In this document: positions 29,415 through 47,528 of the stretch, in pieces | Position numbering within the stretch: position 1 is the stretch's first letter | Layout: every line of letters begins with the position of its first letter | DNA from: an uncultured Methanoregulaceae archaeon | Lineage (GTDB): Archaea > Halobacteriota > Methanomicrobia > Methanomicrobiales > Methanospirillaceae | Direction: 5' to 3' | Assembly (NCBI GenBank): GCA_963737635.1 | Contig: CAVTTL010000001.1 | Span: 992,001-1,056,000, forward strand | DNA: 64,000 nucleotides | Notes under the pieces: generated by a model | The model's input: only the letters and a program-made list of their open reading frames with translations | Told to the model about the DNA's origin: nothing | Database searches by the model: none | Position numbers and translations under genes: made by a program

Positions 29415-29529
29415 GCTGACTGTAAGTAATAATCTTATAAAGTATTTCTCCGGCAGCAAGATAGAAGGAATGTTCCTACTATCAAATATAAATATTTGTA
29501 ATAACAACAGTGATCTGAAGAAAGGAGGA

Positions 29530-29637
29530 ATGATGCAAAAGACACTGGATACTTCGGAGGCCTCCCCGGCACACCGGGAGTCGCCTGCCATGCGGCGGCT
29601 GTGGGCCGTATCGCGTAAACTGACGCTGCCTATCTAA
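29530..29637 (+). CDS. Putative 35-aa upstream ORF in the nifH leader
   Basis: AAAGGAGGA RBS before ATGATG; MMQKTLDTSEASPAHRESPAMRRLWAVSRKLTLPI*; TATA-like TATAAATA near 29487. Confidence 0.35.
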   Translation: MMQKTLDTSEASPAHRESPAMRRLWAVSRKLTLPI

Positions 29638-29762
29638 TCTTGGGCGGAATGACGAAGGGCTTGTGCGCATGATACGGGGCCGCAGAAGCGCGTGTTTTGC
29701 ACCCCATCACCGGCGTATGAAGTTGGCAGTCCCGAACCAAGAGGTGGATACGGTAGTGGTAA

Positions 29763-30758
<996 letters not shown>

Positions 30759-30808
30759 CGTGCGGTAAACTGCATTTCGGATTGACAAAAAAAGGCGGAC
30801 GTGAGGTA

Positions 30809-31135
30809 ATGTTACTGATACGTGCAATTGTGCGACCGGAGAAGAAAGATGACGTGCTTGAGGAACTTTCTTCTGCTGGATTTAATGCAGCAACGATGGT
30901 TGATGTCGTGGGCCGCGGCAAACAGAAAGGGATTAAAATCGGTGGCTTGGTCTACGATGAGATCCCGAAGATCCTGATCCTTGTGGCTATCCAGGACGCG
31001 GACAAGGACCAGGTCATCAAAACCATTCTCAAGACTGCAAAGACTGGCAGTGAAGGGACGTTTGGCGATGGAAAGATCTTCGTTTCCCCCATCGAAGAAG
31101 TCTACACCATCTCGAAAAGTATCCAAGAGCTTTAG
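30809..31135 (+). CDS. nifI1: PII-family nitrogenase regulator NifI1
   Basis: GRGKQKG...YDEIPK...GDGKIF; lies between nifH and nifD. Confidence 0.93.
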   Translation: MLLIRAIVRPEKKDDVLEELSSAGFNAATMVDVVGRGKQKGIKIGGLVYDEIPKILILVAIQDADKDQVIKTILKTAKTGSEGTFGDGKIFVSPIEEVYTISKSIQEL

Positions 31136-31146
31136 GTGGGACTGCT

Positions 31147-31566
31147 ATGAAAGAGATTATGGCAGTAATCCGGATGAGGAGAACCGGCGCCACGAAAAAA
31201 GCGCTTATTGAGGCTGGTGTAGCCGGGTTTACGGCAGTAAAAGTATCCGGCAGAGGCAGGCTCGTCACCGATCCAGCGCAGATAGAGGAGTGCAAAATGA
31301 AACTCCTGTCGATGGGCGTCAATGATTTTGGCGGGGCGGAGGATACCGAAAAACTGGTAACGAGTTTCCTCGATGGTTCGAGGTTTTTTCCCCGCAGGCT
31401 TTTCACGATCCTTGCGCATGATGAGGATGTGCCCCGGATTATGGACGCAATAACACGTGCGAACAAAACCGAGTACGGCATCGGTGATGGCGTCATCTTC
31501 GTTATGCCTATCCTTGATGCAGTTCGTGTTCGCACCGGTGAATCGGGTGAGGCAGCGATTTGGTGA
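31147..31566 (+). CDS. nifI2: PII-family nitrogenase regulator NifI2
   Basis: MKEIMAVIRM, long T-loop, GDGVIF, VRTGESG. Confidence 0.92.
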   Translation: MKEIMAVIRMRRTGATKKALIEAGVAGFTAVKVSGRGRLVTDPAQIEECKMKLLSMGVNDFGGAEDTEKLVTSFLDGSRFFPRRLFTILAHDEDVPRIMDAITRANKTEYGIGDGVIFVMPILDAVRVRTGESGEAAIW

Positions 31567-31579
31567 GGAGACATCAGAT

Positions 31580-33205
31580 ATGGCAGACACTGAAGGTACA
31601 ATCGAAGAAATGATGATGCCGTACCCGGACACGGTAAAGAAAAACCGGAAGAAGCACCTCATTATCAAGGATGAGGAGGCTGCGTGTTGTCCCCAGATCG
31701 AAGCGAACACAAGAACCATTCCCGGCATCATATCACAACGCGGTTGTGCGTACGCTGGTTGCAAAGGTGTGGTTGTCGGGCCGATCAAAGACATGGTAAC
31801 TATCACCCACGGACCGGTCGGCTGCGGGTATTACAGCTGGGGCACACGCCGGAACAAGGCACGGGCTGACGACACAACCCCCAAGGACAAAATATACAGC
31901 CAGCTATGCTTCACCACCGACATGCAGGAGCCGGATATCGTCTTTGGCGGCGAAAAGAAACTTGCACGGATGATAGATGAGGTTGTCGCTGCATTCCACC
32001 CGCGTGCAATCAATATCTGCGCAACGTGCCCGGTGGGTCTCATCGGTGACGATTTAGGTGCGGTTGCAAAAGCGGCAGAAGAGCGGCATGGCATCCAGGT
32101 GCTTGCGTATAATTGCGAGGGATACAAAGGTGTCAGCCAGTCGGCAGGGCACCACATTGCAAACAACAATGTGATGGAGAAAATTGTCGGCAAAGGAACA
32201 GAGCGAAAGCCCGGTAGGTTCGTCATCAATCTCCTTGGCGAGTACAATATCGGCGGCGACGGGTGGGAGCTTGAGCGGATCCTTAAGGAGATCGGCTATA
32301 CCGTTAACTGTATCCTCACCGGGGATTCAAGTTATCTCGATATAAAAAATCTGCATCTCGCGGACTTAAACCTCGTCCAGTGCCATCGGTCGATAAACTA
32401 TATCGCCGAGATGATGGAGGCAAAATACGGTACGCCATGGCTGAAGGTCAACTTCATTGGCATTGACGCGACGAACCAGTCGCTCCGTCAGCTCGCCCGA
32501 TGTTTTGATGACCCAGATCTCGCCCGAAAGACCGAGGAGATTATTGAGCGGGAGACTGCCCGGGTTACCCCCATACTCGACCAGTACCGGAAGGTGTTGC
32601 AGGGCAAGACCGCCTTTGCAATTGTCGGCGGCTCCCGGAGTCACCACTATCAGTACCTCCTCCGTGACCTTGGTATGGAGATGATCATCGCCGGTTACGA
32701 GTTTGCCCACCGGGACGACTACGAAGGCCGGCAGGTAATCCCTACCATCAAGACCGATGCGGATAGTAAGAACATTCCCGAACTTCACCTCATCCCCGAT
32801 GAAAAAATGTACAAGGAACCGCACGTCCACCTGAACCTGTCAAAAAAGAAGTTTGACGAACTAAACGCCGAAGTCCCGCTCAACTACTATGAGGGCATCT
32901 ATCCGAACATGAAGAACGGGCATATTATCATCGATGATGCAAACCATCACGAGGTTGAGGTCCTGATACAGACCGCAAAACCCGACCTCTTCCTTTCCGG
33001 GGTCAGGGACAAGTATATCGTCCACAAGATGGGGGTTGCCTCAAAACAACTTCATGCCTATGACTACAGCGGCCCGTACGCGGGATACAACGGTGCGATC
33101 ACCTTTGCCCGTGATGTCGCAAAAGCTCTCACGACCCCTGCATGGAAACTGATCACCCCTCCATGGGAGAAAGAAAAAGAAACACGGAGTGAGTCTCATG
33201 CTTGA
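31580..33205 (+). CDS. nifD: Mo-nitrogenase alpha chain (group II type with ~50-aa insert)
   Basis: RGCAYAG, GPVGC, GVSQSAGHH, VQCHRS, YEFAH, QLHAYDY. Confidence 0.96.
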   Translation: MADTEGTIEEMMMPYPDTVKKNRKKHLIIKDEEAACCPQIEANTRTIPGIISQRGCAYAGCKGVVVGPIKDMVTITHGPVGCGYYSWGTRRNKARADDTTPKDKIYSQLCFTTDMQEPDIVFGGEKKLARMIDEVVAAFHPRAINICATCPVGLIGDDLGAVAKAAEERHGIQVLAYNCEGYKGVSQSAGHHIANNNVMEKIVGKGTERKPGRFVINLLGEYNIGGDGWELERILKEIGYTVNCILTGDSSYLDIKNLHLADLNLVQCHRSINYIAEMMEAKYGTPWLKVNFIGIDATNQSLRQLARCFDDPDLARKTEEIIERETARVTPILDQYRKVLQGKTAFAIVGGSRSHHYQYLLRDLGMEMIIAGYEFAHRDDYEGRQVIPTIKTDADSKNIPELHLIPDEKMYKEPHVHLNLSKKKFDELNAEVPLNYYEGIYPNMKNGHIIIDDANHHEVEVLIQTAKPDLFLSGVRDKYIVHKMGVASKQLHAYDYSGPYAGYNGAITFARDVAKALTTPAWKLITPPWEKEKETRSESHA

Positions 33206-34565
33206 ATGTGTACCGGAAGAAACGGTCAGCCACACGACCGGGAAGATCAACCCGGCAAAAACCTGCCAGCCTATCGGTGCAATGTATGCGGCTCTCGGTA
33301 TCCATGGATGCCTGCCGCACAGCCATGGCTCGCAGGGCTGCTGCGCATATCACCGCATGCACCTTACCCGGCACTTCCGCGACCCGGTGCTTGCGTCATC
33401 AAGTTCCTTTACGGAAGGAGCCTCCGTTTTTGGTGGGGCAGCGAACTTAAAGACCTCGATAAAAAATGTCTTTACGATCTACAATCCCGAGGTCATGGCA
33501 ATTCATACCACCTGCCTCTCGGAGACAATCGGCGATGATATTCCAAACATCCTCAAACAGGCCGAGATTCCCGAAGGAAAAGTGGTTATCCACGCCAACA
33601 CGCCAAGTTATGCGGGTTCGCATATCACGGGTTTCTCCAACATGTGCAAAGCGATGGTCTCCTATCTCGCCCAGTCCGATAGCGTGGACAAAAAAGAGCA
33701 GGCAAATGTCCTGCCGGGTTTTGTCAATCCCGGGGATATGCGGGAGATCCGACGCATCGTCTCGTCTCTCGGTATAAAACTGATCATGTTCCCGGACACC
33801 TCGGGGGTCCTTGACTCGCCCCTTACCAGCAGGTACCAGATGTATCCTGAAGGCGGGGCCACTGTTGCCGAGATCCGTGATTCAGGCAACTCTGTAGTCA
33901 CGCTCGCGCTTGGTGCATTCGCGTCCCACGATGCTGCCGATATTCTCCAGGAAAAATGCGGCGTTACTGGCATCCCCTTGAAACTCCCCATCGGTCTCAA
34001 GGCGACGGATGACTTTATCATGGCGTTAAAAGACTGGTTCGGTAGTGAAGTTCCCGGGACCCTGACACTCGAACGCGGCCAGGTTATCGACACACTTATC
34101 GACACACATTTCCATTACCAGGGAAAGACGGTCGCAATCTTCGGCGATCCTGATCATGTGATTGCCATGACCGAATTCGCCCTCACGATGGGTATGATCC
34201 CCAAATACCTGCTCACTGGTACGCCCGGGAAGGAGTTCGAAGCGACCATAAATGCTATGCTCGACGAAGCAGGCATTCAGGAACGACGGGTGAAAGCAGA
34301 AGGGGATCTCTTCGATCTCCATCAGTGGATCCGGGAAGAAAAAGTGGATCTCATGATTGGCACAACATATGGGAAATACATTGCCCGTGCGGAGGACATC
34401 CCTCTTGTCAGGTTCGGTTTTCCCATTCTTGACCGGGCCGTTCACCCCCTCATGCCTGTGGTTGGCTACCGGGGCTGCCTGCGCCTGATCGAGCAGATCA
34501 GTAACGCACTTCTCGAGCGCCGGGATCGCGATGCGCTTGACGAGGATTTCGAATTGGTTCTGTAA
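33198..34565 (+). CDS. nifK: Mo-nitrogenase beta chain
   Basis: INPAKTCQPIGA, HGSQGC, TTCLSETIGDD, TPSYAGSH, GFPILDR. Confidence 0.96.
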   Translation: MLECVPEETVSHTTGKINPAKTCQPIGAMYAALGIHGCLPHSHGSQGCCAYHRMHLTRHFRDPVLASSSSFTEGASVFGGAANLKTSIKNVFTIYNPEVMAIHTTCLSETIGDDIPNILKQAEIPEGKVVIHANTPSYAGSHITGFSNMCKAMVSYLAQSDSVDKKEQANVLPGFVNPGDMREIRRIVSSLGIKLIMFPDTSGVLDSPLTSRYQMYPEGGATVAEIRDSGNSVVTLALGAFASHDAADILQEKCGVTGIPLKLPIGLKATDDFIMALKDWFGSEVPGTLTLERGQVIDTLIDTHFHYQGKTVAIFGDPDHVIAMTEFALTMGMIPKYLLTGTPGKEFEATINAMLDEAGIQERRVKAEGDLFDLHQWIREEKVDLMIGTTYGKYIARAEDIPLVRFGFPILDRAVHPLMPVVGYRGCLRLIEQISNALLERRDRDALDEDFELVL

Positions 34566-34606
34566 ACAAAGAGTATTTCCTTAAAGAAAAGAGGGTGAAG
34601 GAGATT

Positions 34607-35999
34607 ATGGAAGATTCATGTTCGATCCCGGCAGGAGCGGTCGCGTGCATTGTCGAACGGCAGGATTCGATCCTGACCGCAGGCAAAAGCCGGGCCCGTA
34701 TCCATTGTGCGGATGACAGTCTTGCCGGTTCGGTCAGCCAGCGGGCCTGTGTATTCTGCGGGGCCCGGGTGGTTTTGAACCCGGTGACCGATGCGGCTCA
34801 TTTAGTCCATGGGCCTATCGGCTGCGCCACGTACACCATGGATATCCGGGGCAGCCTGTCCAGTGACTCCGAGCTGTACCGCAACAGCTTCTCAACAGAC
34901 ATGAAAGAAAGGGATGTGATCTTTGGTGGTGAGAAAAAACTTGCGGTTTGTATCGACGAAATAGCGGAAAAATACCACCCCCCGGCAATATTTGTCTATG
35001 CAACCTGCGTCTCGGGTATGATTGGCGACGATATAATCGCGGTCTGCAGAGCGGCGTCGGCACGGCATGGAATCGATGTGATCCCGGTCGAATCCAGCGG
35101 GTTTATTTCCGGCAACAAGGTCGTCGGCTACCGGGCCGCAGCTGAAGCTTTGCTCCGGCTCATTTGCCCAAAAGAGGGCCAAGTGATCGAAAAAACAAAA
35201 AAGATCAATTTCCTTGGTGAGTACAACCTCGGTGGAGAGAAGTGGGTGGTCGAACGGTACCTCAAAGAGATAGGCATTGAGATCAACGTCGCTTTCACCG
35301 GTGATTCGACCGTTGCAGCGCTCAAACGAGCACCCTCAGCATTCCTGAACTTGGTTCAGTGTACCGGTTCGATGCATTGGGTTGCAGCCAGCCTCGAACG
35401 ATCGTTTGGTACCCCATATATGGATGTAAACTTTTTCGGGCCGGAGAATACAGCGGAGAGCCTGCGAAAAATCGCCGCATTCTATAACGACGAAAACATC
35501 ACCCGCCGCACGGAAATCCTCATCGACCGGGAGATGGGCCGTATCCGCCCTGTACCTGGAGAAATACCGGAGCAAGCTTCGGGGAAAACGAGCGGCCATC
35601 TACGTGGGTGGTGCGTACAAGGCGATCGCCATCATCCGCCAGCTCCGGGGACTCGGCATGGAAATCGTGCTCTCCGGTACCCAGACCGGTAAACAGGATG
35701 AGTACGAGAGCATGGGCAGGATGCTCTCGGAAGGCACGATCATCATAGATGACGCAAACCCGGCCGAACTCGAAAAATTCCTGCTCGAAAAGAACGTGGA
35801 TGTGATGATTGGTGGCGTAAAAGAGCGCGCGCTCGCATATAAACTCGGGATCGGTTTTGTCGACCACAACCATGACAGGAAAGACAGCCTTGCCGGGTTC
35901 GATGGCGCCGTCCGGTTTGCCCACGAAGTTTCTGTCACTACGTGTTCGCCAGTCTGGGAGCATATCAGGACCCCGGTCAGAGGAGGGATCCAGCTATGA
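34607..35999 (+). CDS. nifE: FeMo-co scaffold NifE; frameshift near 35551
   Basis: SQRACVFCGA, HGPIGC, ATCVSGMIGDD, LVQC; continues AAIYVGGAYK...DHNHDR in the next frame. Confidence 0.92.
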
Positions 36000-37396
36000 C
36001 GGGCATCAAGGTTGCAACCCTGCCTGCAATTCTTCCCCGGGCAAGACAGGTCAGCGAGAACCAGTGCCATATGTGTATGCCGATCGGGGCTGTCACCGCA
36101 TTCAAGGGCATTGAGAACGCGATGGTCCTTGTGCACGGTTCACAGGGGTGCAGCACGTACATGCGACTTGCAAACATCGAGCATTACAACGAACCGGTCG
36201 ATATCGCCTCGTCTTCGCTGAACGAGAAACAAACCATCTACGGTGGCGAAGCCAACCTCAGGAAAGCCATGGATAATGTTATCAGGGTATACCAACCGGA
36301 GGTGCTGGGTATCCTGACTACCTGCCTTTCCGAGACCATGGGAGAGGATCTTGAACGCATTGTCTCTTCATATGTGCAGGAGAAAAAAATCGCCGGCGTC
36401 GACATCATCCCGGTGAACACACCCAGTTACAGCGGAACGCATACCGAGGGGTTCTGGGCGGCGACCCGTGGTGTAATCTCATACTACGCCCGACCAACGC
36501 GGCCGCACCGGCGCATCAACGTCATCGTTCCGCACATCAGTCCGGCCGATATACGGGAGATCAGACGCATCCTCGACTGTACGGGACTCTCGTATACACT
36601 GGTACCGGACTATTCGATGACTCTTGACCGCCCCTACGGGGGAAGGTACCAGAAAATACCTTCAGGAGGAACGCCGGTAAAAGAGATCGCAGAAATGGCC
36701 GGGGCACCGGTGACCATCCAGTTCGGGACAACCTGCCCCGATACCCTGTCGCCAGGCTTGTACCTGGAACAGGCGTATGGAGTACCCCTCATCAATCTAC
36801 CACTACCTATCGGCCTCAAAAACACGGATCTCTTTGTTGATACCGTCACAAAGATCAGTGGGCAGCCTATGCCGGATGAGCTTATACTCGAACGCGGCTG
36901 GCTTCTCGATGGCATGGCCGATTCGCATAAGTTCAACGCTGATGGGAGGCCGGTCATCTATGGTGAACCCGAGCTGGTGTACGCCTTTGCCACGCTTTGC
37001 GCAGAGAACGGAGCCCCGCCGGTAGTTATTGCTAGCGGCACACAAAACAGCCTGATTGCCGAACGACTCGCCTTGAGGATCGACTCGGCCGATGAAAAGC
37101 CGGTCCTCCTTGAAGGAGCCGATATTGCCGCAATCGAAGAAGCGGTGTTACGTGCCGGATCAAACATTGCAATAGGCCATTCCGGAGGAAAGTCGCTTTC
37201 CGAGCGCCACGGCATCCCGCTTGTCAGGGTTGGTTTTCCCGTCCACGACCGCACAGGAGGACAGCGGATCCTCTCGGCCGGATACCGGGGTACTCTTGCC
37301 TTTCTCGACCGGTTCACAAACACGCTTCTGGAAACCAAGTATGCCACGTACCGCAGGAAGATAAAAGAAGAACTCTGTATCACCGAAGGTGTCTGA
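35996..37396 (+). CDS. nifN: FeMo-co scaffold NifN
   Basis: ENQCHMCMPIGA, HGSQGC, TTCLSETMGED, GFPVHDR. Confidence 0.92.
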   Translation: MTGIKVATLPAILPRARQVSENQCHMCMPIGAVTAFKGIENAMVLVHGSQGCSTYMRLANIEHYNEPVDIASSSLNEKQTIYGGEANLRKAMDNVIRVYQPEVLGILTTCLSETMGEDLERIVSSYVQEKKIAGVDIIPVNTPSYSGTHTEGFWAATRGVISYYARPTRPHRRINVIVPHISPADIREIRRILDCTGLSYTLVPDYSMTLDRPYGGRYQKIPSGGTPVKEIAEMAGAPVTIQFGTTCPDTLSPGLYLEQAYGVPLINLPLPIGLKNTDLFVDTVTKISGQPMPDELILERGWLLDGMADSHKFNADGRPVIYGEPELVYAFATLCAENGAPPVVIASGTQNSLIAERLALRIDSADEKPVLLEGADIAAIEEAVLRAGSNIAIGHSGGKSLSERHGIPLVRVGFPVHDRTGGQRILSAGYRGTLAFLDRFTNTLLETKYATYRRKIKEELCITEGV

Positions 37397-37398
37397 TT

Positions 37399-37707
37399 AT
37401 GCAAAAACCCAAGCACCATATCTTTGTCTGTACCAGCTCCCGTGCGAACGGGCAGCAGAAAGGATTCTGCCACTCCAAAGAGGGCGTTGACATTATGTCA
37501 AAATTCATGGAAGAGATTGAAGAACGCGATATGGGTGGAGAGGTCTTCCTCTCCAATACAGGCTGTTTCGGGATCTGCGAAAAAGGCCCTGTCGTCGTCG
37601 TGTACCCGGACAATGTCTGGTACGGATCGGTCTCTCCAGATGACGTTCCCGTGATCCTCGACGAACACATTGAAGGGGGAAAAGTAGTGGACCGCCTGGT
37701 AATCTGA
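37399..37707 (+). CDS. Thioredoxin-like [2Fe-2S] ferredoxin (nif-associated)
   Basis: HIFVCTSSR...GFC...TGCFGICEKGP..VVYPDNVWY. Confidence 0.9.
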   Translation: MQKPKHHIFVCTSSRANGQQKGFCHSKEGVDIMSKFMEEIEERDMGGEVFLSNTGCFGICEKGPVVVVYPDNVWYGSVSPDDVPVILDEHIEGGKVVDRLVI

Positions 37708-37732
37708 AAAGGATTGCGCAGGCTGGAAGTGA

Positions 37733-38374
37733 ATGATGGCAGAAGAGATAGCAGCAATCCTTGGCGAAGATGGCGTGAGTTCCCCGTTGAACGAAAAGGG
37801 AACGGTTGTCGTATTTGTGCGCACAGAAGGGGCTTGGAAAAAAGATCGCGAGGTGTTGCTCGTCATCGACCCGGCAAAAGGCATCAAAGATATGCGGGAA
37901 AAAATGGCGGAACTCATACGATTTCTCGGTCCATGCCGGATTCTCATTACCGCGTCGGCCAGCGGAGCACTATATTTTGAGCTGGAGAAAGCCCGGTGCT
38001 CCATTTGGGAAATTTCCGGGAAGCCTCAGGAGTTTTTCAGCCAGGTTTGGGCGGAGGAAGAAAAAGAGAGATCAAAAGAAAGGATCCCTGCACAGACACC
38101 GGGAGTGTCCGGGATACCGGTACCTGTGGAAAAAACCCCGGGCACGTTCAGCATCTCGATAAAAGAAGTCCAAGGTAAGCGCCCGGATATATCAAGCAAG
38201 CAGGTGCTCCAACAGTTCATCCAGAGAGGGGGATTTCTGGTTCTTGATATCACCTGCTCCCATGTGCCACCCTGGATAGAAGTCGAGGCAGAGCGCCGTG
38301 GCTATATTCTTGAAACCGAACAGGTAGATAGCAACACCATGAAAGTCAGGCTGACGACATCTGCAAGTCGGTAA
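37733..38374 (+). CDS. AnfO-family nitrogenase accessory protein
   Basis: EIAAILGEDG, YFELEKARCSIWE, SSKQVLQQF, CSHVPPW motifs typical of AnfO-like proteins. Confidence 0.72.
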   Translation: MMAEEIAAILGEDGVSSPLNEKGTVVVFVRTEGAWKKDREVLLVIDPAKGIKDMREKMAELIRFLGPCRILITASASGALYFELEKARCSIWEISGKPQEFFSQVWAEEEKERSKERIPAQTPGVSGIPVPVEKTPGTFSISIKEVQGKRPDISSKQVLQQFIQRGGFLVLDITCSHVPPWIEVEAERRGYILETEQVDSNTMKVRLTTSASR

Positions 38375-38456: not shown

Positions 38457-38786
38457 ATGAAGATGATTCAGGCAATAATAAGGTCCGAGAGACTGGACGG
38501 CGTTAAAAAGGCGCTCGAAGAGAAAGGCTTCATCGCCATGAGTATCATGGAAATCACCGGCAGGGGAGAACAGAAAGGCATCACCCTTGAATACCGGGGG
38601 GCAATGGTAGAAGTGGACACACTTCCCAAGATCATGCTCCAGATGGCTGTCGATGACGAGGATGTCGATCCTATCATTGCGATCATCCGGGCCGCAGGAA
38701 GGACGGGGAATTTTGGCGATGGAAAGATATTTGTCTGGCCGCTCGATCTGATGGCCAAGGTCCGGACTGATGAAGTATGGAGATGA
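38457..38786 (+). CDS. PII nitrogen regulator (GlnK/GlnB-like)
   Basis: MKMIQAIIR, GRGEQKG, EYRG...LPK, TGNFGDGKIF; own TATA-like TTATATAAA near 38377. Confidence 0.9.
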   Translation: MKMIQAIIRSERLDGVKKALEEKGFIAMSIMEITGRGEQKGITLEYRGAMVEVDTLPKIMLQMAVDDEDVDPIIAIIRAAGRTGNFGDGKIFVWPLDLMAKVRTDEVWR

Positions 38787-38860
38787 AACCCGGGTTTTGT
38801 AAATAAAGGCAATACAGAAAATTTCTGGTAGTTTCATATAGGCACGGTGAGGTCCCAGCG

Positions 38861-39838
38861 ATGCTCAAAGCAGGTGACATGGTTTGCGATTACAAAATCG
38901 TAGGATTACTGGGTCAGGGCGGGTTCAGCCAGATCTACAAGGCATATGCCCCCGATGGTACATTTGTGATCCTTAAGTTTCCGGATGTCTCCCTGCTTGG
39001 CGATCAGGCGACCTACGAACGTTTCCGGCGGGAGGTCGCTATCGGGCAGAAACTAAACCATCCCGCTATTCCGCGTGCAATCAGCTTTGTAGAGGGGTCC
39101 GATTCGGTCTTTCTCGTTATGGAATATATTGATGGGTCATCTCTGCGCACGTACCTCAGCGAAAAAGCACCTCTTCCCCTTAAGGAAGGGCTTTTTCTTG
39201 CAGACCAGCTTGCTGAGGCAATCGAGTATCTGCATTCTCACGGTGTCTATCACCGGGACCTTAAACCGGAGAATATTATTGTCGGACCCGATGATAAGAT
39301 CCATATCCTCGATTTCGGGAGTGCGTTGCTCGAAGGTTCCCGCCGCGTGACTTGGAGGTGGGCATCAAATGCCTTTGGGACACCGGACTATATGGCACCT
39401 GAGCAGATTCAGGGAAAACGGGGGGATGCACGGACCGATGTGTACGCACTTGGGATGATCGTATATGAGATGCTGACCGGGACATTACCGTTCCAGGGAG
39501 ACAATGTCCTCGCAGTCATGAACCAGCACCTGACCGGAGTCCCGGCTTCTCCCCGCGTGCTCATGCCTTCAATCCCTGAAAGCATCGAGGCAGTGATACT
39601 TAAGTCGATACGCCGCGATCCTGATGAGCGTTATCAGTCTGCGAGTGCTTTCCGGTATGATATGGAGCATTTTGTAGATCTCGATCTCTCACAATTCCAT
39701 TGGGAACCTGAGGGGGCCGCCAGCGGAGGGGTACTCACCAATCGCCAGATCTGGCTGCGGACCATCTTGGTTGTTGTCGTTTTCCTGGCAATAGCGATAC
39801 TACTTGTCCTCGCGGCATATCTGATGCATCATCACTAA
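38861..39838 (+). CDS. Hanks-type Ser/Thr protein kinase (PknB-like) with a C-terminal TM anchor
   Basis: GQGGFS, VILK, HRDLKPEN, DFG, GTPDYMAPEQ, DVYALG; terminal hydrophobic helix; no extracellular domain. Confidence 0.93.
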   Translation: MLKAGDMVCDYKIVGLLGQGGFSQIYKAYAPDGTFVILKFPDVSLLGDQATYERFRREVAIGQKLNHPAIPRAISFVEGSDSVFLVMEYIDGSSLRTYLSEKAPLPLKEGLFLADQLAEAIEYLHSHGVYHRDLKPENIIVGPDDKIHILDFGSALLEGSRRVTWRWASNAFGTPDYMAPEQIQGKRGDARTDVYALGMIVYEMLTGTLPFQGDNVLAVMNQHLTGVPASPRVLMPSIPESIEAVILKSIRRDPDERYQSASAFRYDMEHFVDLDLSQFHWEPEGAASGGVLTNRQIWLRTILVVVVFLAIAILLVLAAYLMHHH

Positions 39839-40022
39839 AACCAAACTCGTAAAGTGTATTTTCAAAATTGAATCCTTCAAGCGATTCCAGCGGTTTTCCC
39901 GCACACTTTTTGGGATCAAAACCTGCGTATCAATTGGAAAGAATCTTTCATTTTATAAATTCTGTAAGGGTAACCCCGTCACATAAAATAATAGTTCCCG
40001 GACCCTATGTTTCACGCGGTCA

Positions 40023-40457
40023 TTATACCAGCGCACTGTCGCCCTGTTCCCCGTTCCTCACCCGGATAGCGCTGACCATGGGGCAGACAAAGATCTTCCC
40101 GTCTCCATGGCGCCCCGTCTGGTTTACTGCAATAAGTGTCTTGATTACGGGAATCACATCGCCGTCGTTTGCGACGATAATCAGCATTCTTTGTGGCTGG
40201 AACCCGTATGCCCTCTCCTTTTCAGCAGGTTGGCTGCTGGTAGGAGCTGCCGACGCCGGAACGGCATCCTGCTGGAGTGGATGCCTGCCTGCATAAGGGT
40301 AGCGATCCCCCCCGGGAAGGCGGGGCAGGATCATTCCTTTCTGTAGACCTTTTCCTGTGACATGAAGGAACGTGAAGCCATGTACGCCGAGCTTCGTGAG
40401 GGCGGACTTGGTCTCTTCTGCTTTCTCATTTCTGATGATGGCGATGATCTTCTTCAT
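40023..40457 (-). CDS. PII-family protein, NifI2-like, with a long Pro/Ser/Thr-rich T-loop
   Basis: MKKIIAIIR, GKGLQKG, NQTGRHGDGKIF, IRVRNGEQG. Confidence 0.88.
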   Translation of the reverse strand: MKKIIAIIRNEKAEETKSALTKLGVHGFTFLHVTGKGLQKGMILPRLPGGDRYPYAGRHPLQQDAVPASAAPTSSQPAEKERAYGFQPQRMLIIVANDGDVIPVIKTLIAVNQTGRHGDGKIFVCPMVSAIRVRNGEQGDSALV

Positions 40458-40833
40458 ATCGGAGTACCGGTATTAGCCGGAAGGCCCCGACCGTTCCTGC
40501 GGTTTTCAGCCGTTCTGATAGTATACGCGTCTTCAACGTAGGTTATAAAGATCTTGCCGTCCCCGACAGCCCCGTGACCGGGATTCTCTTTTTGCCAAGT
40601 TCTTGCCATGGTACTGATAATTTTCACGGCACGTGCGACATCGATATCCGGGAGTACGAGCATGAGCATTTCTTTTGGAATCTCAGAATAGTTGACGGAA
40701 CCTGCCGTAATTCCTATCTCAGCTCCATGACCAGTCACGTGGAGACGTGTCATCGCGCTGATTCCGGTTTTCTCCAGTGCATCGATCACTTTTTGTGAAT
40801 ATTCCGCCGGATAATTGCCCAGATCATTTTCAT
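40454..40833 (-). CDS. PII-family protein, NifI1-like; 1-nt deletion near 40806
   Basis: MKMIWAIIR(P)EYSQKVIDALEK..., NYSEIPK, GDGKIF, YTIRT. Confidence 0.85.
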
Positions 40834-40978
40834 AGATACATCACCACAACATTCAGAATGAAGCCGGGTATCTGTTTTCCGATGGCTGGATCACCGTACC
40901 AGGAATCGTGGGTTCCTTTAACGCTCTTTTTCATGTCTGCTGGTGAATAGAGACGGTTGCGGTTCATAAAGTACCAAA

Positions 40979-41848
40979 TTACCTTTTTCCAAGGAGTGAC
41001 CGCCATGAAAACGGAATGGTTGCTTGTTTTCCGATAATATCGATATGAAACATAATGCCAGTGATGTTGTCTGGTGCTCCCCGGCTCAGCGCAAGCCGGA
41101 CCAGTTTTTCACATCCCCTGCTCATGTCATTCTCCTTTAAGGCGGACTGTATCTCCTCATCAGTAAGTTCTGACCATAAACCATCGCTGCAGAGAAGGTA
41201 AGTGTCGCCCTGCTGTACCTTCTGGTGGGTAATGTCGGCATTCATGAACGGTTCCCCGCCAACGGAACGGGTAAGCTGGTGGCGGCCCGGATGCTGTGAG
41301 GCCTGTTCAGAAGAGATCAGGTGAATCTGGAGCATGTCGCTTGCCATGGTGTGATCCCGGGTCAGTTGATCGATACGATCTTCTCTCATCCGGTAAAGGC
41401 GGCAGTCGCCAACATGGCCGATAACCAGTGAATCGTTGTCCAACACAGCGATGGTTAATGTGGTCTGCATTTTCCGGAACAACTCCGGATCGGTCTGGGC
41501 TACACAGAAAATTTTCTGGTTTGCATTTTGCATCGCCCGGCTGACTACACGGTCCGCCCCTCCTCCGTGCCATGTATGAAATTCCTCTTTTATAGCTTTG
41601 AGGGCCATCCTGCTTGCGATTGCACCGCCCCGGTGTCCGCCAAGGCCGTCAGCTACAGCAAAGACATACCGCGATGAGGACTCGGTATCGGTTTTTCCTT
41701 CGATAACGTGAGTAACCCAGTGGGCGTCTTCATTCTGGGATCTCGTCAGACCCTGATGGGTAATAGCCCGCCATGTAACGATTACGCCGACAAGATTTGG
41801 CGCCTTAACCGTAGGCACGATTACCGAATTTTCTCCCATGATGACCAC
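40979..41848 (-). CDS. PP2C/PPM family Ser/Thr phosphatase (Stp1/PrpC-like)
   Basis: RSQNED, AVADGLGG, HVGDCR, TRDH, LCSDGL, DNIT; metal-binding Asp residues intact. Confidence 0.93.
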   Translation of the reverse strand: MVIMGENSVIVPTVKAPNLVGVIVTWRAITHQGLTRSQNEDAHWVTHVIEGKTDTESSSRYVFAVADGLGGHRGGAIASRMALKAIKEEFHTWHGGGADRVVSRAMQNANQKIFCVAQTDPELFRKMQTTLTIAVLDNDSLVIGHVGDCRLYRMREDRIDQLTRDHTMASDMLQIHLISSEQASQHPGRHQLTRSVGGEPFMNADITHQKVQQGDTYLLCSDGLWSELTDEEIQSALKENDMSRGCEKLVRLALSRGAPDNITGIMFHIDIIGKQATIPFSWRSLLGKR

Positions 41849-41976
41849 ATGATTCTATCTATGATTAAAAGATATGGATACCGGATCCGGCAGATACCTG
41901 CCAAGATATGTTACCGGTACCCTTTTTCTTTTTAACTCCAGGCTGTTGTTTTATCGTCTATTGCCAATGTCAAAAA

Positions 41977-43560
41977 TTATGCATCATCCTGTTCCAGTCC
42001 GGTTGCCCGTGGCAGGTGTCCGGACATGATAGGTCGGCCCTGTTTTTTCGTGTTGGAAATGAACCAGATTGCCCCGGCTACCAGCCAAACTATGACCATC
42101 GCAATCGCAATCAGAGCATCAGTTGCTGAACTGCCTCCGGCACTGACACCGAGCCAGACAACCGCACCAAGCATGACGAAATTTGCCAAGAAACCGAGTA
42201 GTGGTACTATGCGGTGTTTCAGGAGGTTGGCATCAGAACGGTGGAAGAAGGCCCAGAGAGCAATGAGGTTTGTCAGGCCGTACAGGAGGAACGTGCCGGT
42301 GTTAGATGCAAGGGTAATCTGGGTCAGATTGTCTATGTTGAGGACTCCGTACGCGCCTAAAGCTGCAGATACAGCGACCAGGATCCAGATACCGTAATGC
42401 GGGGTGTCGTATTTACCATGCAGGATACCAAGCAGCGTAGGCATCTCTTCGTCTTTACCCATAGCGTAGGTAATCCGGACACCGGTGTTAAAGCATGCAA
42501 GGGTTGTCCCGATCAATGCGAGCACTACTGTTGCAGCCATAATTAAAACCAGCACAAATCCCGTGCCTCCTAGCATCTGGTCGCCGATTACCCGGATCAT
42601 ATCGCCGATAGGAGCTCCGGAAGCCGCCGCTGCTGTATAACCCGAGATTGCCGCTCCGGTTGCATCGGTTCCGGTTAGTTGTGGACCGACAAAATAATTT
42701 GCAGCGAAATACTCGAACAAATAGGCGAATGCACCCTGAATGATAAGAGAGAGAAGGATTGCTTTTTTAATATCCTGTTTTGGCCGGAGCGCTTCGGAAC
42801 CTAGCGATGTCACCGACTCGAAACCCACCAACAGCAGAATTGCGATGGTCGACTGGAAGAGCAGGTTCGTGAAGTTGTGCGGTATAAGGATTGTTGAAAC
42901 GGATGTGGCGTATACCAGATTGGGGTGAGTCTCTCGGTACAGAATTGCCAGTATCGAAAAACCGATAAGTGCCACCAACTGGATGGTGTTGATGACGATA
43001 GCAGTCATGGTCGAACCGGTTATTCCGCGGTATGCAATATAGCCGTTGAGAACGGCGAACAACACGGCAACAAGAATCTGTTCCGGGACTGACAGGGCAA
43101 TCCCAAAGAGGCCGAAGATATAGACAATCAGGATAGCCGAAAAGGCCACCATGATACCCGGATAAATCCAGTAATACAGATGAGATATCCAGCCTACCAG
43201 AAATTTAACGATTCGTGCCCATTTGCGATGCTCTGCTTTTTCTTTCTCGAGAAACGAGGCTTCAGCATAATAATAGGACGAACCGGCGCCGGCTTTGGGA
43301 TAGATGTTTGCCAGTTCTGCGTACGAGATTGCCGTCAAAAACGCAAGAACGAGTGCGGCTAAAAGGCCGGTCCACATCTCGCCCGCGGTCGTTACGCCAC
43401 CGTTGGTTTGCGCGGCTTGTACCTGGAATGTGGTCCAGAGAAAGGCCCCCGGGGCAATCAACGCCATGGCATTGACCAAGAGCGAGGTGAGATTTAATGT
43501 ACGTTTCATTGTTCCGGTTTTGGGAACAGTTGCCTGATTTCCTTCCTGTGATGATGTCAT
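41977..43560 (-). CDS. APC superfamily permease
   Basis: ~12 TM helices; AISYAELA..YPKAGAG, VGFESVTSLGSEA, RITYAMG. Confidence 0.9.
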   Translation of the reverse strand: MTSSQEGNQATVPKTGTMKRTLNLTSLLVNAMALIAPGAFLWTTFQVQAAQTNGGVTTAGEMWTGLLAALVLAFLTAISYAELANIYPKAGAGSSYYYAEASFLEKEKAEHRKWARIVKFLVGWISHLYYWIYPGIMVAFSAILIVYIFGLFGIALSVPEQILVAVLFAVLNGYIAYRGITGSTMTAIVINTIQLVALIGFSILAILYRETHPNLVYATSVSTILIPHNFTNLLFQSTIAILLLVGFESVTSLGSEALRPKQDIKKAILLSLIIQGAFAYLFEYFAANYFVGPQLTGTDATGAAISGYTAAAASGAPIGDMIRVIGDQMLGGTGFVLVLIMAATVVLALIGTTLACFNTGVRITYAMGKDEEMPTLLGILHGKYDTPHYGIWILVAVSAALGAYGVLNIDNLTQITLASNTGTFLLYGLTNLIALWAFFHRSDANLLKHRIVPLLGFLANFVMLGAVVWLGVSAGGSSATDALIAIAMVIVWLVAGAIWFISNTKKQGRPIMSGHLPRATGLEQDDA

Positions 43561-43644
43561 CTTAATGTATCTCCCTTGACAGGATAAGATTTTCAATTGA
43601 AGTATGGCTTTTCAGGAACGATCATCTGCTCATGAGCAACCATT

Positions 43645-43658
43645 GGAAAGTAGATTCC
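43645..43658. promoter_or_regulatory. NrpR-type operator GGAA-N6-TTCC
   Basis: GGAA-AGTAGA-TTCC, exact consensus, between a minus-strand TATA-like element (~43667-43680) and the APC start codon. Confidence 0.65.
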
Positions 43659-43865
43659 TTCTTAGCATAATAAATATATCTGTTCGAGCACAATTACTTG
43701 CATGCAAGAAAGAATCACATTTCTAGACAGGTATGTGAAAAGGAAATTGCGATCTTTGATCCGTATTCCAGCGGCATTGGTAACTAAACAGCCGGGCAGA
43801 TTATACCCGTTTTAACTCATAGTGATCTATTGTAAGAATTGCAGACCGGAGTCGAGAAATATTGT

Positions 43866-44828: not shown

Positions 44829-45089
44829 AGCTGTTTGCCGATATCCTGCCTTAGTTTTTTTCCGCCGGCGCCTTGTCCACACCTCGGCACACCTTTGGAG
44901 GAACGAGACATATGAGCTTATCCTGGCCATGCATTGTTTTTTTGTGGCGCTGCTATTCCATGAGTTCCGTTTTACCATCGATATAATTATCTTTATATCT
45001 GGTAGATCGCACATTCTTTCCATAAAATTTTTATAACAACAAATGACACGCAGCTAATGTGAATGCTTTGCTACTATCCAAAGCATCTC

Positions 45090-47528
45090 ATGATGAAGGT
45101 GTATTCCATTGGGGCGTCGTCAGCTCTTTGGTCGATGATCAGGAAACAGATTAAGCCAGCCGTAATGATGTTTCTTTTACTCACGGTTCTCGTGGGCATT
45201 GTGTACCCTCTGGTTGTAACAGGTATCGCTCAGGTGATCTTCCCTGCACAGGCGAACGGGGATCTTATTGTTCATAATGGAAATATTGCGGGATCTTCTC
45301 TCATAGGCCAGCCTTTTTCGTCCCCGGATTATTTCTGGGGGCGCCTCTCCGCAACATCGCCGGTGCCCTACGACGCTGAAGCCTCAGGCGGTTCGAATTA
45401 CGGTCCACAGAACCCGGCTCTTATTACAGAGGTACAGGGACGGATAGATGCCCTTCACACAGCTGACCCGAATAACACGCAACCAATCCCTGTCGATTTA
45501 GTGACATCGTCAGGGAGCGGGCTTGATCCGGATATTAGCCCAGCTGCGGCCTACTACCAGGTCCCAAGGGTTGCACGGGAGCGGAACCTTTCCGAAAGTG
45601 ACGTTTCCATGCTTGTTGCGGCAAACACAGAGAACCCGGTGCTCGGGATCTTTGGCCAGCCGGTGGTAAATGTCCTGAACCTGAACCTGGCGCTCGATGA
45701 TCTGAGTGCCCATACAATCCCGGTTCCGCAGGCGACAATACCCAGAAGCACGCCCGCGAACACGCTGTTTGGGATAACTATCACTGACTGGGCCTTCCTC
45801 ATCCTGCTCGGTGTTATCCTCGCACTCCTTCTTGTTCCGGTTGGGGAGTTCATGTTCCGGGTTTACACGGGTAAGCCGACGTTCCTGTCCCCGGTGATCA
45901 TGCCAATAGAAGGGTGGATCCTCCGGATATGCGGTGCCGGGAGCGATGAGGAGATGGACTGGAAGCAGTTTACCGTTGCGATGATGGTCTTTTCCGTCGT
46001 CGGGATTGCATTTGTCTTCTTTATCCAGGAGGTCCAGCAGTACCTCCCACTCAACCCGCTCAGTGCCGGCCCGGTTTCGTGGGATCTCTCACTCAACACC
46101 GCGGTCAGTTTTGCTACCAACACCAACTGGCAGTTCTATGTTCCGGAAACGACCGTCAGCTATCTGACACAGTTGGTAGGGCTTGCTGTACAGAACTTTA
46201 TGTCTGCAGCGGTGGGTATGGCGGTGCTCGTTGCGTTCATTTACGGTTTCTCACGCAGGTCGACCCTTACCATCGGAAACTTCTGGGTGCTGCTCGTCCG
46301 CGGCATCTGGATTCTCCTGCCGCTCAGTTTTATCCTAGCCCTTCTCCTTGTATCACAGGGAACGCCCCAAACATTAGGTGGTCCGGTAACGGTCCCACTC
46401 CTCAATCCGGTGAATGATTCAAATGGGAATCTCGTCACCACGCAATCGATCTCGCTTGGGCCTGCGGCGTCACAGATCGCAATTAAAATGCTTGGTACAA
46501 ATGGCGGGGGTTTCTTCAATGCAAACTCAGCGCATCCCTTTGAAAACCCGACGTGGTTCTCGGATTTGATCGAGATCGTCGCTATCCTCCTGATTCCGGT
46601 ATCTCTCTGCTTCATGTTCGGTAAGATGATCGGATCGGTGAAGAAGGGAATTGCCATCCTGATCGCCATGACCCTGCTCTTTGTGCCGCTCCTGGGTCTT
46701 GGCATCTGGTCGGAGATCGGAGGCAACCCGGCCTTTGTCCCCCTCGGGATAGACCAGACGCCGTCCCATCTCCAGCCCGGCGGCAACATGGAAGGAAAGG
46801 AGGTACGCTTTGGCATTGTCCAGTCAGCAGCATTCTCCGTAATAACCACGGTAACCAGCTGCGGTGCAGTGAACTCGATGCACGATTCTTTCATGCCGCT
46901 TGGCGGTCTTGTCCAGATATTCGACATCCAGTTGGGTGAAATTGTCTATGGCGGTGTCGGATCAGGCTTGTACTGCATGTTCGTCTTTATCATCATCGCA
47001 ATGTTTATTGCCGGGCTGATGGTCGGGCGGACACCTGAACTGTACGGCAAGAAGATCGAGCCGTACGAGATGAAGCTCTCTACTATCCACATCCTCATTC
47101 CCCTCTTTTTGATCCTGATCGGGACCGCGATCGCGGTTTCAATCACCCCGGGAACAGCCGCGGTCTTCAACCCGGGACCTCACGGGTTCTCTGAGATCCT
47201 GTACGCATTCAGCTCGGTCTCCCAGAACAACGGTAGTGCATTTGCCGGGTTGTCATCGAACCAGTTCTACAACATTTCCACGGCAGTCTGCATGTTTATC
47301 GGGCGTTATGCCATCGCTATCATCACACTCGCATTGGCCGGGGCATTTGTGACAAAGAAGATCGTGCCGGCAAGCGAGGGGACGCTGCAGGACCACCGGC
47401 CGCTCTTTATCATCTGGGTGGTCTTTACTATCCTCATCATCGGGGCACTCAGTTTCCTACCTGCGCTCTCCCTGGGGCCCATCGTTGAATTCCTGATTCA
47501 GATCGGAAGGGGTGTTATCCATGTCTGA
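45090..47528 (+). CDS. kdpA: KdpC-KdpA fusion, potassium-transporting ATPase subunits C and A
   Basis: KdpC motifs ([42 protein letters not shown]) run in frame into KdpA motifs (TNTNWQ, GTNGGG, SCGAVN, GGVGSG, NNGSAF). Confidence 0.93.

Follow-up and report, generated by a model that had tools for sequence, protein, structure and literature searches.

Gene content of the locus

The stretch of DNA analysed here (the window) covers 64,000 nucleotides of the genome of an uncultured Methanoregulaceae archaeon (assembly GCA_963737635.1, contig CAVTTL010000001.1, positions 992,001 to 1,056,000 of the forward strand). Our subject is a cassette of six genes located at 38.4-43.7 kb of this window, directly downstream of a nitrogen fixation (nif) cluster of the Mo type. 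A glnK-like gene and the gene of a Hanks-type Ser/Thr kinase on the forward strand converge there with the genes of a divergent APC-superfamily permease, a PP2C-family phosphatase and two PII proteins resembling NifI1 and NifI2 on the reverse strand. Gene identities were assigned with Pfam and NCBIfam profiles together with a reading of the translations. A preliminary description of this DNA had listed the six genes in this orientation, with intact catalytic motifs in the kinase and the phosphatase, and both statements are borne out by the profiles and alignments. Judged by sequence comparison, the core of the system is the triad of divergent APC permease, PP2C phosphatase and tail-anchored Hanks kinase of about 325 residues, and not the PII trio. 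The locus appears to be a composite of this bacterial three-gene module and an archaeal PII part, which consists of a cassette-specific GlnK paralogue and a NifI1-like/NifI2-like pair. In bacteria the module is usually followed by a type I glutamine synthetase (GS) gene and is often found among genes for ammonium transport (amt), PII and glutamate synthase (GOGAT). The genes and features are as follows.

38457-38786, + strand: glnK-like PII gene, cassette-specific GlnK paralogue, 109 aa; P-II profile PF00543, 87.2 bits; GlnK-type T-loop, altered C-terminus
38861-39838, + strand: minimal Hanks-type Ser/Thr kinase, 325 aa; Pkinase, 183.1 bits; C-terminal tail anchor
40023-40457, - strand: NifI2-like PII; P-II, 78.2 bits; long, fast-evolving T-loop insert; start overlaps the NifI1-like stop
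40454-40833, - strand: NifI1-like PII, frameshifted in the assembly; open reading frame (ORF) 40454-40789 gives P-II, 57 bits, at profile positions 18-102 only
40979-41848, - strand: PP2C (PPM) Ser/Thr phosphatase, soluble; PP2C_2, 57.7 bits; invariant metal-binding aspartates
41977-43560, - strand (ORF open from TTG 43596): divergent APC-superfamily permease; AA_permease, 56.4 bits
43645-43658, no strand assigned: GGAA-N6-TTCC palindrome GGAAAGTAGATTCC, NrpR-type operator candidate; kept in 7/7 Methanoregula loci
43667-43679, - strand: TATA-like box of the permease operon promoter, ATATATTTATTAT on the - strand; A+T-rich box in the same place in 7/7 Methanoregula loci
29931-38374, + strand: nif context, nifH-nifI1-nifI2-nifD-nifK-nifE (frameshifted)-nifN, 2Fe-2S ferredoxin and AnfO-like genes (Pfam/NCBIfam), directly upstream of the glnK-like gene

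The triad in bacteria

A scan of GTDB species genomes with the permease gave 592 confirmed stretches, of which the best 80 yielded 79 loci, three from Methanoregulaceae and 76 from bacteria. By their record titles, the bacterial loci belong to eleven phyla: Chloroflexota, Dormibacterota, Actinomycetota, Ignavibacteriota, Bacteroidota, Thermodesulfobacteriota, Acidobacteriota, Gemmatimonadota, Pseudomonadota, Spirochaetota and Bacillota. Neighbours were counted in the 55 bacterial loci in which at least 4.5 kb of sequence follows the permease gene (21 bacterial loci with short flanks and the three archaeal loci were left out), using tblastn with the window proteins and with GS and Amt queries, within 6 kb of the permease. 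The kinase was found in 54/55 loci and PP2C in 46/55, and the three genes are contiguous and colinear in the order APC-PP2C-kinase in 39/55. PII was observed in 11/55 loci, with 44/55 lacking it, and Amt in 8/55. The co-occurrence of these genes with the permease, as envisaged in the preliminary description, therefore holds for the kinase and the phosphatase but not for PII, and the same counts argue against placing the PII trio at the centre of the system. The usual fourth gene is GS.

GS was found near the permease in 36/55 loci and is the next gene after a contiguous triad in 29/55. The association surfaced when the ORFs of the loci were all clustered in an unbiased manner, and in 21 of 26 kinase-GS ORF pairs the gap is 0 nt or less, so that the two genes overlap or abut. 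Six GS proteins were compared with the type I GS model (cut-off 429). Three of the five that follow a cassette kinase pass it and the other two score 407 and 370; the sixth, from locus L027, passes the cut-off but does not follow a cassette kinase. An assignment of these enzymes as amine ligases of the PuuA, GmaS or GlnA3 type was rejected for most of them, as the gamma-glutamylputrescine synthetase model gives 250-296 against a cut-off of 650.

Forty-eight of the 55 clustered kinase ORFs are 319-348 aa long and end in a tail-anchor helix followed by at most 13 residues. The same anchor is also present in three further ORFs that were called longer (414, 421 and 609 aa). Of the remaining four, three run off a contig end, and the 961-aa ORF of L088 lacks an anchor. 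In the Ktedonobacter-type loci, a Metallophos (calcineurin-like) phosphatase takes the place of PP2C between the kinase and the permease, with an ACT-domain protein and Amt encoded downstream. This assignment was made with Pfam for L082 (Ktedonobacter racemifer DSM 44963, which is in culture) and by clustering for L073, L080, L099 and L067, the last of which also has PP2C. That one phosphatase is replaced by a non-orthologous one speaks for a functional need for this activity. Identities to the window proteins vary together between permease and kinase (rho 0.61, n=65) and between permease and PP2C (rho 0.63, n=62), which fits inheritance of the triad as a unit; the loci are not independent and p-values mean little here.

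Other neighbours were also noted. The large subunit of GOGAT occurs in 6 loci, and a BBP2-type porin in 10, mostly directly upstream of the permease and mostly in Ignavibacteriota and Bacteroidota. In the Actinomycetota locus L045, a NifI1/2-like pair, a radical-SAM gene and a modABC-like transporter are joined to APC-PP2C.

The permease

The permease most likely starts at ATG 43560, which is preceded by a GGGAG ribosome-binding site, and its match to PF00324 (56.4 bits) exceeds the cut-off of 24.6. An AF2 model of moderate quality (pLDDT 69.7) compared with Foldseek indicates the APC/LeuT fold. Matches to BasC, GkApcT, AdiC, ApcT, KimA and NKCC1 give TM-scores of 0.57-0.63, with amino-acid carriers, KimA and NKCC1/NCC about equal, and phosphorylated structures of NKCC1 and NCC are among them. 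No solved chain is more than 18% identical. The closest solved relative by sequence is CAT4 (E 1.8e-7), and a profile search finds only CAT4 and xCT. The protein fits none of the subfamilies of known substrate that were compared (TIGR00909, 82.5 against 556.8; BcaP, 43.9 against 690; FrlA, 25 against 800), and a search of the ESM Atlas returned only generic 'APC family permease' clusters. On reading, the TM6 region retains the GFE-type motif of amino-acid and amine APC carriers.

The subfamily is strongly conserved, with 50-71% identity between Methanoregula and bacteria. Our alignment shows, immediately N-terminal to the first helix, the juxtamembrane motif M-K-[KR]-T-L-x-L-T, where T33 is Ser or Thr in 83/83 sequences and T37 is Thr in 83/83. 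A role as a potassium or ammonium ion carrier is conceivable but not supported, the fold match to KimA being no better than those to amino-acid carriers. The idea had been prompted by the kdp operon beside the Methanoregula cassette and by tblastn matches to kdp in L072 and L086. A tblastn search for plasmid carriage gave no match in PLSDB at E <= 1e-40.

The kinase and the phosphatase

The kinase domain scores 183.1 bits with PF00069 (cut-off 31.7) and covers positions 1-257 of the 263 in the profile. In an alignment of 24 cassette kinases, G20, K39, E58, H131-R132-D133, N138, D151-F152-G153 and P180-E181 were observed to be invariant, as was T164 in the activation loop. The C-terminus consists of a single hydrophobic transmembrane helix followed by 4-6 residues and there is no sensor domain, which agrees with the earlier view of the protein as membrane-tethered and without a sensor of its own. 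It is not an equivalog of the PknB/Stk1 type, since the best NCBIfam match, PknB_PASTA_kin, reaches 254.3 bits against a cut-off of 450 and concerns the kinase domain only, and no extracellular domain is present.

The phosphatase exceeds the Pfam cut-offs (PF13672, 57.7 bits; PF00481, 52.9 bits) and falls below that of the Stp1/IreP equivalog (NF033484, 217.7 bits against 230). Residues R36, N39, D41, D67-G68, G147-D148, D222-G223 and D260 are invariant among 18 sequences, with D41, D67, D222 and D260 as the metal-binding positions. A complex prediction for permease and kinase, run without controls, scored 0.03 against a mark of 0.32 and counts neither for nor against binding. Two more neighbouring Pkinase-PP2C pairs were seen in this genome (C1:1333206-1334641 and C1:1940249-1941773), so Hanks-type signalling is not restricted to the cassette.

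Origin and distribution in Methanoregula

The preliminary description had suggested an imported cassette of bacterial style, and the evidence on the triad agrees with this. Permease matches at E <= 1e-60 occur in 4 of the 401 genomes sampled from the phylum, all four of them Methanoregula. A maximum-likelihood tree of 84 permeases (midpoint root, quick search) places the seven Methanoregula rows in one clade (support 99), which is sister (99) to three rows from two uncultured Chloroflexia loci within a Chloroflexota/Dormibacterota/Actinomycetota group. These two loci, L027 and L059, are also the closest for permease (70-71% identity), kinase (55-60%) and PP2C (50-53%) alike. Because the archaeal permeases nest within bacterial diversity and have a narrow range, transfer from bacteria to archaea is the direction indicated, and the triad was most likely acquired horizontally by a Methanoregula subclade from a Chloroflexota donor. 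In both L027 and L059, PP2C and the kinase are separated by the gene of another APC-type permease of greater length (678-703 aa, PF13520), and L027 carries the APC-PP2C-kinase set twice within 17 kb.

Two further archaeal samples were used, an order-wide one of 151 genomes (including 12 others of the same genus) and one of 41 genomes of the genus. The loci (L handles) and genomes (G handles) of Methanoregula may overlap as genomes, and counts made on them are not independent. Kinase orthologues of 77-82% identity occur in three of the 12 other same-genus genomes, the next-best matches in the order-wide sample being generic kinases of at most 38% identity. The same set of genes was found in other Methanoregula, as expected for a syntenic unit, although in three different layouts:

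G086: layout as in the window
G017: APC-PP2C-NifI1-like-NifI2-like-glnK-like-kinase, colinear, beside SBF/kdp; nifK about 730 kb away
G143: glnK-like-APC-PP2C-kinase, no NifI-like pair; directly upstream of nifH
L026: glnK-like-APC-PP2C-kinase, no NifI-like pair; no nif gene found in the available 4-6 kb flank
L025: colinear six-gene form, directly upstream of nifH
L024: all six genes; no nif gene found in the available 4-6 kb flank
G508 and G512: permease 7-8 kb from nifK

The attachment to nif is therefore frequent but not obligatory, as G017 demonstrates. The glnK-like gene lies inside the cassette in 7/7 Methanoregula loci. In the genus sample, nifK was found in 12 genomes and the permease in 6; five of these six have nifK and the sixth is 81% complete.

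The PII proteins and their native relatives

In alignment, the glnK-like protein was observed to carry the PII T-loop together with the ligand-binding residues of PII proteins, namely Q39, K58, the GDGKIF motif and basic C-terminal residues. Its T-loop (...YRGAMVEVD) is almost identical to that of the canonical GlnK of this genome and contains T43 and Y46. With the numbering that we take from E. coli GlnB, position 49 is Ala and position 51 is Val, so that neither Ser49 (phosphorylation) nor Tyr51 (uridylylation) is present. On PII trees of small sampling, which hold only sequences from the loci gathered in this analysis, the protein falls on the archaeal GlnK side, away from the PII proteins of bacterial cassettes, in its own clade of seven rows (97) that is separate from the canonical GlnK encoded after amt.

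The two remaining PII proteins group with NifI1 (99/96; 98 in a second tree) and NifI2 (100/97; 97 in the second tree), respectively. They are not encoded between nifH and nifD, where the genuine nifI1 and nifI2 of this genome are located (30782-31566), and are 30-36% identical to the latter. The NifI1-like protein does not have the R38/Q39/K40 stretch and has a B-loop insertion. The T-loop insert of the NifI2-like protein is unlike that of the genome's NifI2 and is hypervariable among orthologues. The NifI1-like gene named in the preliminary description is present, but in the assembly it is frameshifted by a deletion of one nucleotide: its first codons (ATG 40833) are in a different frame, one base being absent at about 40806/40807 (GGCCGG to GGCGG), and the gene is intact in four orthologues.

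Homologues of the NifI2-like protein, at 43-50% identity, were found in the cassette-less Methanoregula genomes G119 and G139 and on a second contig of G143. The gene order in G119 and G139 is amt-glnK-NifI1-like-NifI2-like (L108, 5502-8108, and L109, 5751-8313, respectively). The third locus (L110, 3423-4746, contig 16 of G143) lies on a 5-kb contig that holds the PII trio only, where the position of amt would fall past the contig end. All three genomes have nifK, but it does not adjoin the PII trio. Cassette and amt-linked copies form single clades (99 and 98), and the cassette pair is thus native and orthologous to the amt-linked pair. In G119, glnA was seen divergently upstream of the amt-glnK operon, and the NifI1-like copy of G139 looks degenerate (no GDGKIF).

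Since the pair follows amt-glnK in relatives, it has changed partner in the lineage of the window, from Amt-GlnK to the permease-PP2C and GlnK-like-kinase units. Furthermore, its tie to amt and not to nif suggests that NifI-type PII proteins have targets besides nitrogenase. The proposal that the permease has taken the place of AmtB draws its strongest support from this change of partner and is upheld in part: relatives do have amt-glnK before the orthologous pair, but the present genome retains an ordinary amtB-glnK pair of its own, without NifI-like genes.

A conserved candidate operator before the permease

The palindrome at 43645-43658 is the sole perfect GGAA-N6-TTCC in the window. (The consensus and the mode of action of NrpR are known from work on Methanococcus.) It follows the TATA-like box at 8 nt and precedes the permease ATG by 85-98 nt. 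One palindrome was observed a few bases downstream of an A+T-rich, TATA-like box before the permease in 7/7 Methanoregula loci, with the rest of the spacer diverged, and it is kept even where the glnK-like gene has moved between operator and permease. The genome as a whole has 78 perfect sites, where its composition would predict about 37. A filter chosen before the genes were viewed (at least 70% A+T and an A/T run of at least 8 in the 30 nt upstream) retains 7 of the 156 site-orientations, and four of these precede amt1, amt2, glnA (type I GS, 656.8 bits) and the cassette permease. The genome also has two NrpR-family genes (PF01995; 298.5 and 285.4 bits). The glnK-like gene follows the AnfO-like gene after 82 nt that contain a TATA-like run.

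The preliminary description had reported a perfect NrpR-type operator before the permease. The palindrome is there and conserved, but its occurrence within the window taken alone is at chance level; the site is a credible predicted operator because of its conservation in orthologous loci and of the genome-wide pattern. Nitrogen-responsive control of the permease, which the same description had proposed, is plausible in view of the seven conserved sites, the operator shared with amt1, amt2 and glnA, and the two NrpR-family genes.

Proposed function and alternative explanations

In the reading that we prefer, and which we consider about evenly balanced between true and false, the cassette would be an uptake or sensing module that is induced by nitrogen limitation and controlled by Ser/Thr phosphorylation plus PII. 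The permease operon would be repressed through the TATA-proximal GGAA-N6-TTCC operator and switched on under nitrogen limitation, because this operator is common to the amt and glnA promoters. The permease would then take up a nitrogen-containing solute or signal its availability, and the membrane-tethered kinase and the phosphatase would set a reversible phospho-state. The most economical target may be the permease itself at its invariant N-terminal Thr motif, by analogy with the N-terminal Thr phosphorylation of NKCC/NCC. Alternatively, the permease might serve as co-sensor for the sensor-less kinase. The PII proteins would contribute a 2-oxoglutarate and ATP/ADP signal, as GlnK does on Amt.

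A number of observations weigh against this reading. The NifI1-like gene is broken in this assembly. The genome's separate amtB-glnK pair and other kinase-PP2C pairs make the cassette an addition, not a replacement. Within the window, the expectation for GGAA-N6-TTCC is 1.66 and at least one site occurs in 78/100 shuffles. The other three TATA-linked sites (C1:172113, 609840 and 1866908) precede unknown or doubtful ORFs (233, 84 and 101 aa); these sites may extend the nitrogen regulon or be due to chance. The nifH promoter has the operator only with one mismatch, and in the window the glnK-like and kinase genes are inverted relative to the operator-bearing operon, whose operator does not cover their control. 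In addition, the 79 loci were chosen for closest similarity out of at least 592, so that they are not a random sample and include related genomes that are not independent, and the tight coupling of kinase and GS in bacteria fits GS as the target equally well as the permease.

This last point leads to an alternative in which the permease is mainly a sensor for the kinase and not its target, the output falling on GS in bacteria and, in Methanoregula, on PII proteins that act on GS or nitrogenase. The presence of GS with the cassette in 36/55 loci, the overlapping or abutting kinase and GS genes, the frequency of GOGAT, Amt and PII as neighbours and the lack of a sensing domain in the kinase all agree with it. 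However, bare triads without GS, PII or Amt within 6 kb (8 kb flank) occur in L035, L037, L042, L094 and L097, and the Methanoregula cassette has no GS, the glnA of this genome being about 640 kb distant. We regard this alternative as doubtful.

A PII phosphorylation cycle resembling that of PII-P and PphA, as put forward in the preliminary description, is the next alternative. The kinase and PP2C would phosphorylate and dephosphorylate the T-loops of the three PII proteins, and phospho-PII would gate the permease, nitrogenase or both. The glnK-like gene is directly upstream of the kinase in the window, L021, L023, L024 and L025, and its T-loop offers T43 and Y46. A bacterial-type PII gene also lies between PP2C and the kinase in L085 (APC-PP2C-PII-kinase, colinear) and in L062-L064 (kinase on the other strand); this PII is unrelated to that of Methanoregula, which indicates that PII was recruited to the module more than once. 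On the other hand, the 44/55 bacterial loci without PII within 6 kb show that the module's ancestral or general substrate cannot be PII. The form of the idea first stated is not supported by the T-loop of the glnK-like protein, which has neither Ser49 nor Tyr51 and is like that of an ordinary GlnK. Furthermore, the hypervariable T-loop of the NifI2-like protein is a poor fit to a conserved phospho-site, and the cassettes of G143 and L026 have the glnK-like gene without the NifI-like pair. Such a cycle seems improbable as the explanation of the cassette; it is not the primary role and could possibly be a Methanoregula add-on.

Chance placement of the imported triad near nif and kdp, in a region prone to rearrangement, would leave its proximity to PII and nif without mechanistic meaning; this explanation is very unlikely. 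In its favour, the layout does vary: the window, G086 and G512 have a convergent cassette that follows nif, and G143, G508 and L025 a colinear one that precedes it. Also, nif is remote in G017 and not found in the available flanks of L024 and L026, and 7 of the 12 nifK-bearing genomes of the genus sample have no permease. Against it, the glnK-like gene is in the cassette at every Methanoregula locus as a cassette-specific clade, the operator common to amt and glnA is conserved, nifK occurs in 5/6 permease-bearing against 7/35 permease-less genomes of the genus (related genomes, so indicative only), and L045 of the Actinomycetota also joins a NifI1/2-like pair to APC-PP2C.

To return to the preferred reading of a phosphorylation- and PII-controlled module, a wider version of it can be put forward tentatively, although we think it rather unlikely to hold in full. 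An APC-fold transceptor would report external nitrogen to a Ser/Thr phospho-switch, which would set GS activity in at least eleven bacterial phyla and, in Methanoregula, PII and NifI-type proteins and through them ammonium uptake and nitrogenase; this would be a widespread, undescribed device. If true, nitrogen control would have a further branch, based on Ser/Thr phosphorylation and running parallel to GlnD/GlnE and the cyanobacterial system, and a Hanks kinase would for the first time be linked to PII or NifI signalling in archaea.

The module recurs in many bacterial phyla at the heart of ammonium assimilation (GS, GOGAT, Amt and PII) and offers candidates for the regulation of GS, namely a dedicated kinase-phosphatase pair with the permease as a possible sensor. 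The transfer between domains brought a bacterial signalling module into a methanogen, where it joined native PII genes and gained a predicted operator of the archaeal repressor type, and it can serve as a case study of circuit grafting. Methanoregula are key methane producers of acidic, nitrogen-poor wetlands, and an additional nif-linked means of scavenging or sensing nitrogen would bear on how they cope with nitrogen limitation.

Comparison with known systems

In the AmtB-GlnK system, a PII protein gates an ammonium channel. The cassette is alike in that a GlnK-type PII is encoded beside a membrane transporter under predicted nitrogen control, and the same NifI-like pair follows amt-glnK in relatives. 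It differs in its transporter, which is of the APC fold and not a trimeric Amt, in the added kinase and phosphatase and in the retention of a separate canonical amtB-glnK.

In cyanobacteria, PII is phosphorylated at Ser49 and the PP2C protein PphA is its phosphatase; we know of no kinase identified for it. A PP2C-family phosphatase encoded with PII in a nitrogen-regulatory setting is common to both systems, whereas the cassette lacks the T-loop Ser49 and encodes a kinase, and most members of the module have no PII. A Hanks kinase is also at work in actinobacteria, where PknG-GlnH-GlnX/GarA(OdhI) serves in amino-acid sensing; PknG is soluble and multidomain, and a lipoprotein together with GlnX does the sensing. 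There too the kinase is encoded with membrane or solute-recognition partners, and the system controls glutamate/glutamine metabolism. Here, however, the partner is a permease of 12 or more helices, the kinase is tail-anchored and a phosphatase is included.

Phospho-regulated transporters are well known in eukaryotes, as examples SPAK/OSR1 acting on NKCC1/NCC, Npr1 on Mep2/Gap1 and CIPK23 on AMT1. In these systems an APC-fold or ammonium transporter is Ser/Thr-phosphorylated on a cytoplasmic tail, and the cassette permease, whose model matches NKCC1 and NCC, has its invariant N-terminal Thr motif. The likeness is an analogy only, since the kinases have no relationship in sequence beyond the Hanks fold and phosphorylation of the cassette permease is hypothetical. 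In the 'trigger transporter' system LysP-CadC of E. coli, an APC-family permease informs a membrane regulator with one transmembrane pass of the availability of its substrate. The cassette would resemble it in this respect, but its regulator would be a C-terminally anchored kinase and not a ToxR-like DNA binder, and the contact between the two is putative.

A recent preprint describes the binding of NifI1/NifI2 to NifDK through the T-loop of NifI2 and their release by MgATP plus 2-oxoglutarate (bioRxiv 10.64898/2025.12.07.692841). The cassette resembles this nitrogenase switch-off of methanogens in that its two additional PII proteins group with NifI1 and NifI2 respectively, that the NifI2-like one carries a long insert in its T-loop and that their genes are an overlapping pair. 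Unlike it, the pair lies outside nifH-nifD, shares 30-36% identity with the nif-linked proteins, has no R38/Q39/K40 in the NifI1-like member and has its native place after amt-glnK.

The protein families concerned are all known. What we could not find described is the combination of permease, tail-anchored kinase and phosphatase, with or without GS, nor the joining of this module, beside nif, to a GlnK paralogue and two NifI-like genes, nor a NifI-like pair after amt-glnK. A search of the full-text literature, subscription journals and supplements aside, returned no paper on an operon of APC, PP2C and Hanks kinase genes and nothing on methanogens in which PII is phosphorylated or on pairs of NifI-like genes away from nif. 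The available part of a 2016 review of archaeal phosphorylation has no mention of PII and names one studied archaeal PPM (PMC5007285).

Other features of the window

The AnfO-like gene (37733-38374; PF09582, 201 bits, below the TIGR02940 cut-off) ends an otherwise Mo-type-looking nifHI1I2DKEN cluster and is kept in L021 and L022. Within the cluster, nifE (34595-35999) is split by a frameshift near 35555, judged against the intact orthologue of L021. Together with the frameshift of the NifI1-like gene, this makes errors of assembly as likely an explanation as real decay of the nif region.

The nifH leader of about 500 nt (29416-29931 in the window; L022, 9064-9800, - strand; L025, 13174-13855) has an architecture conserved in three species. 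It consists, in order, of an operator-related palindrome, a ATATAAATATTTG box, a strong AAAGGAGG ribosome-binding site with a small ORF (ATG 29533 in the window) and a G+C-rich stretch with conserved blocks. An Rfam scan of the window, the nifH leader included, matched no family. RNAalifold pairs the conserved blocks in 42 pairs, of which 11 show compensatory change (three sequences only), and the leader may be a cis-regulatory RNA or encode a leader peptide.

Downstream of the cassette, the window contains the gene of an SBF-family transporter and kdp genes. A single ORF of 821 aa (45063-47528) fuses KdpC (residues 31-212) to KdpA (residues 249-811) and is followed by kdpB. L021, L023, L024 and L025 have the fused form too, with 86-91% identity across 807-815 residues.

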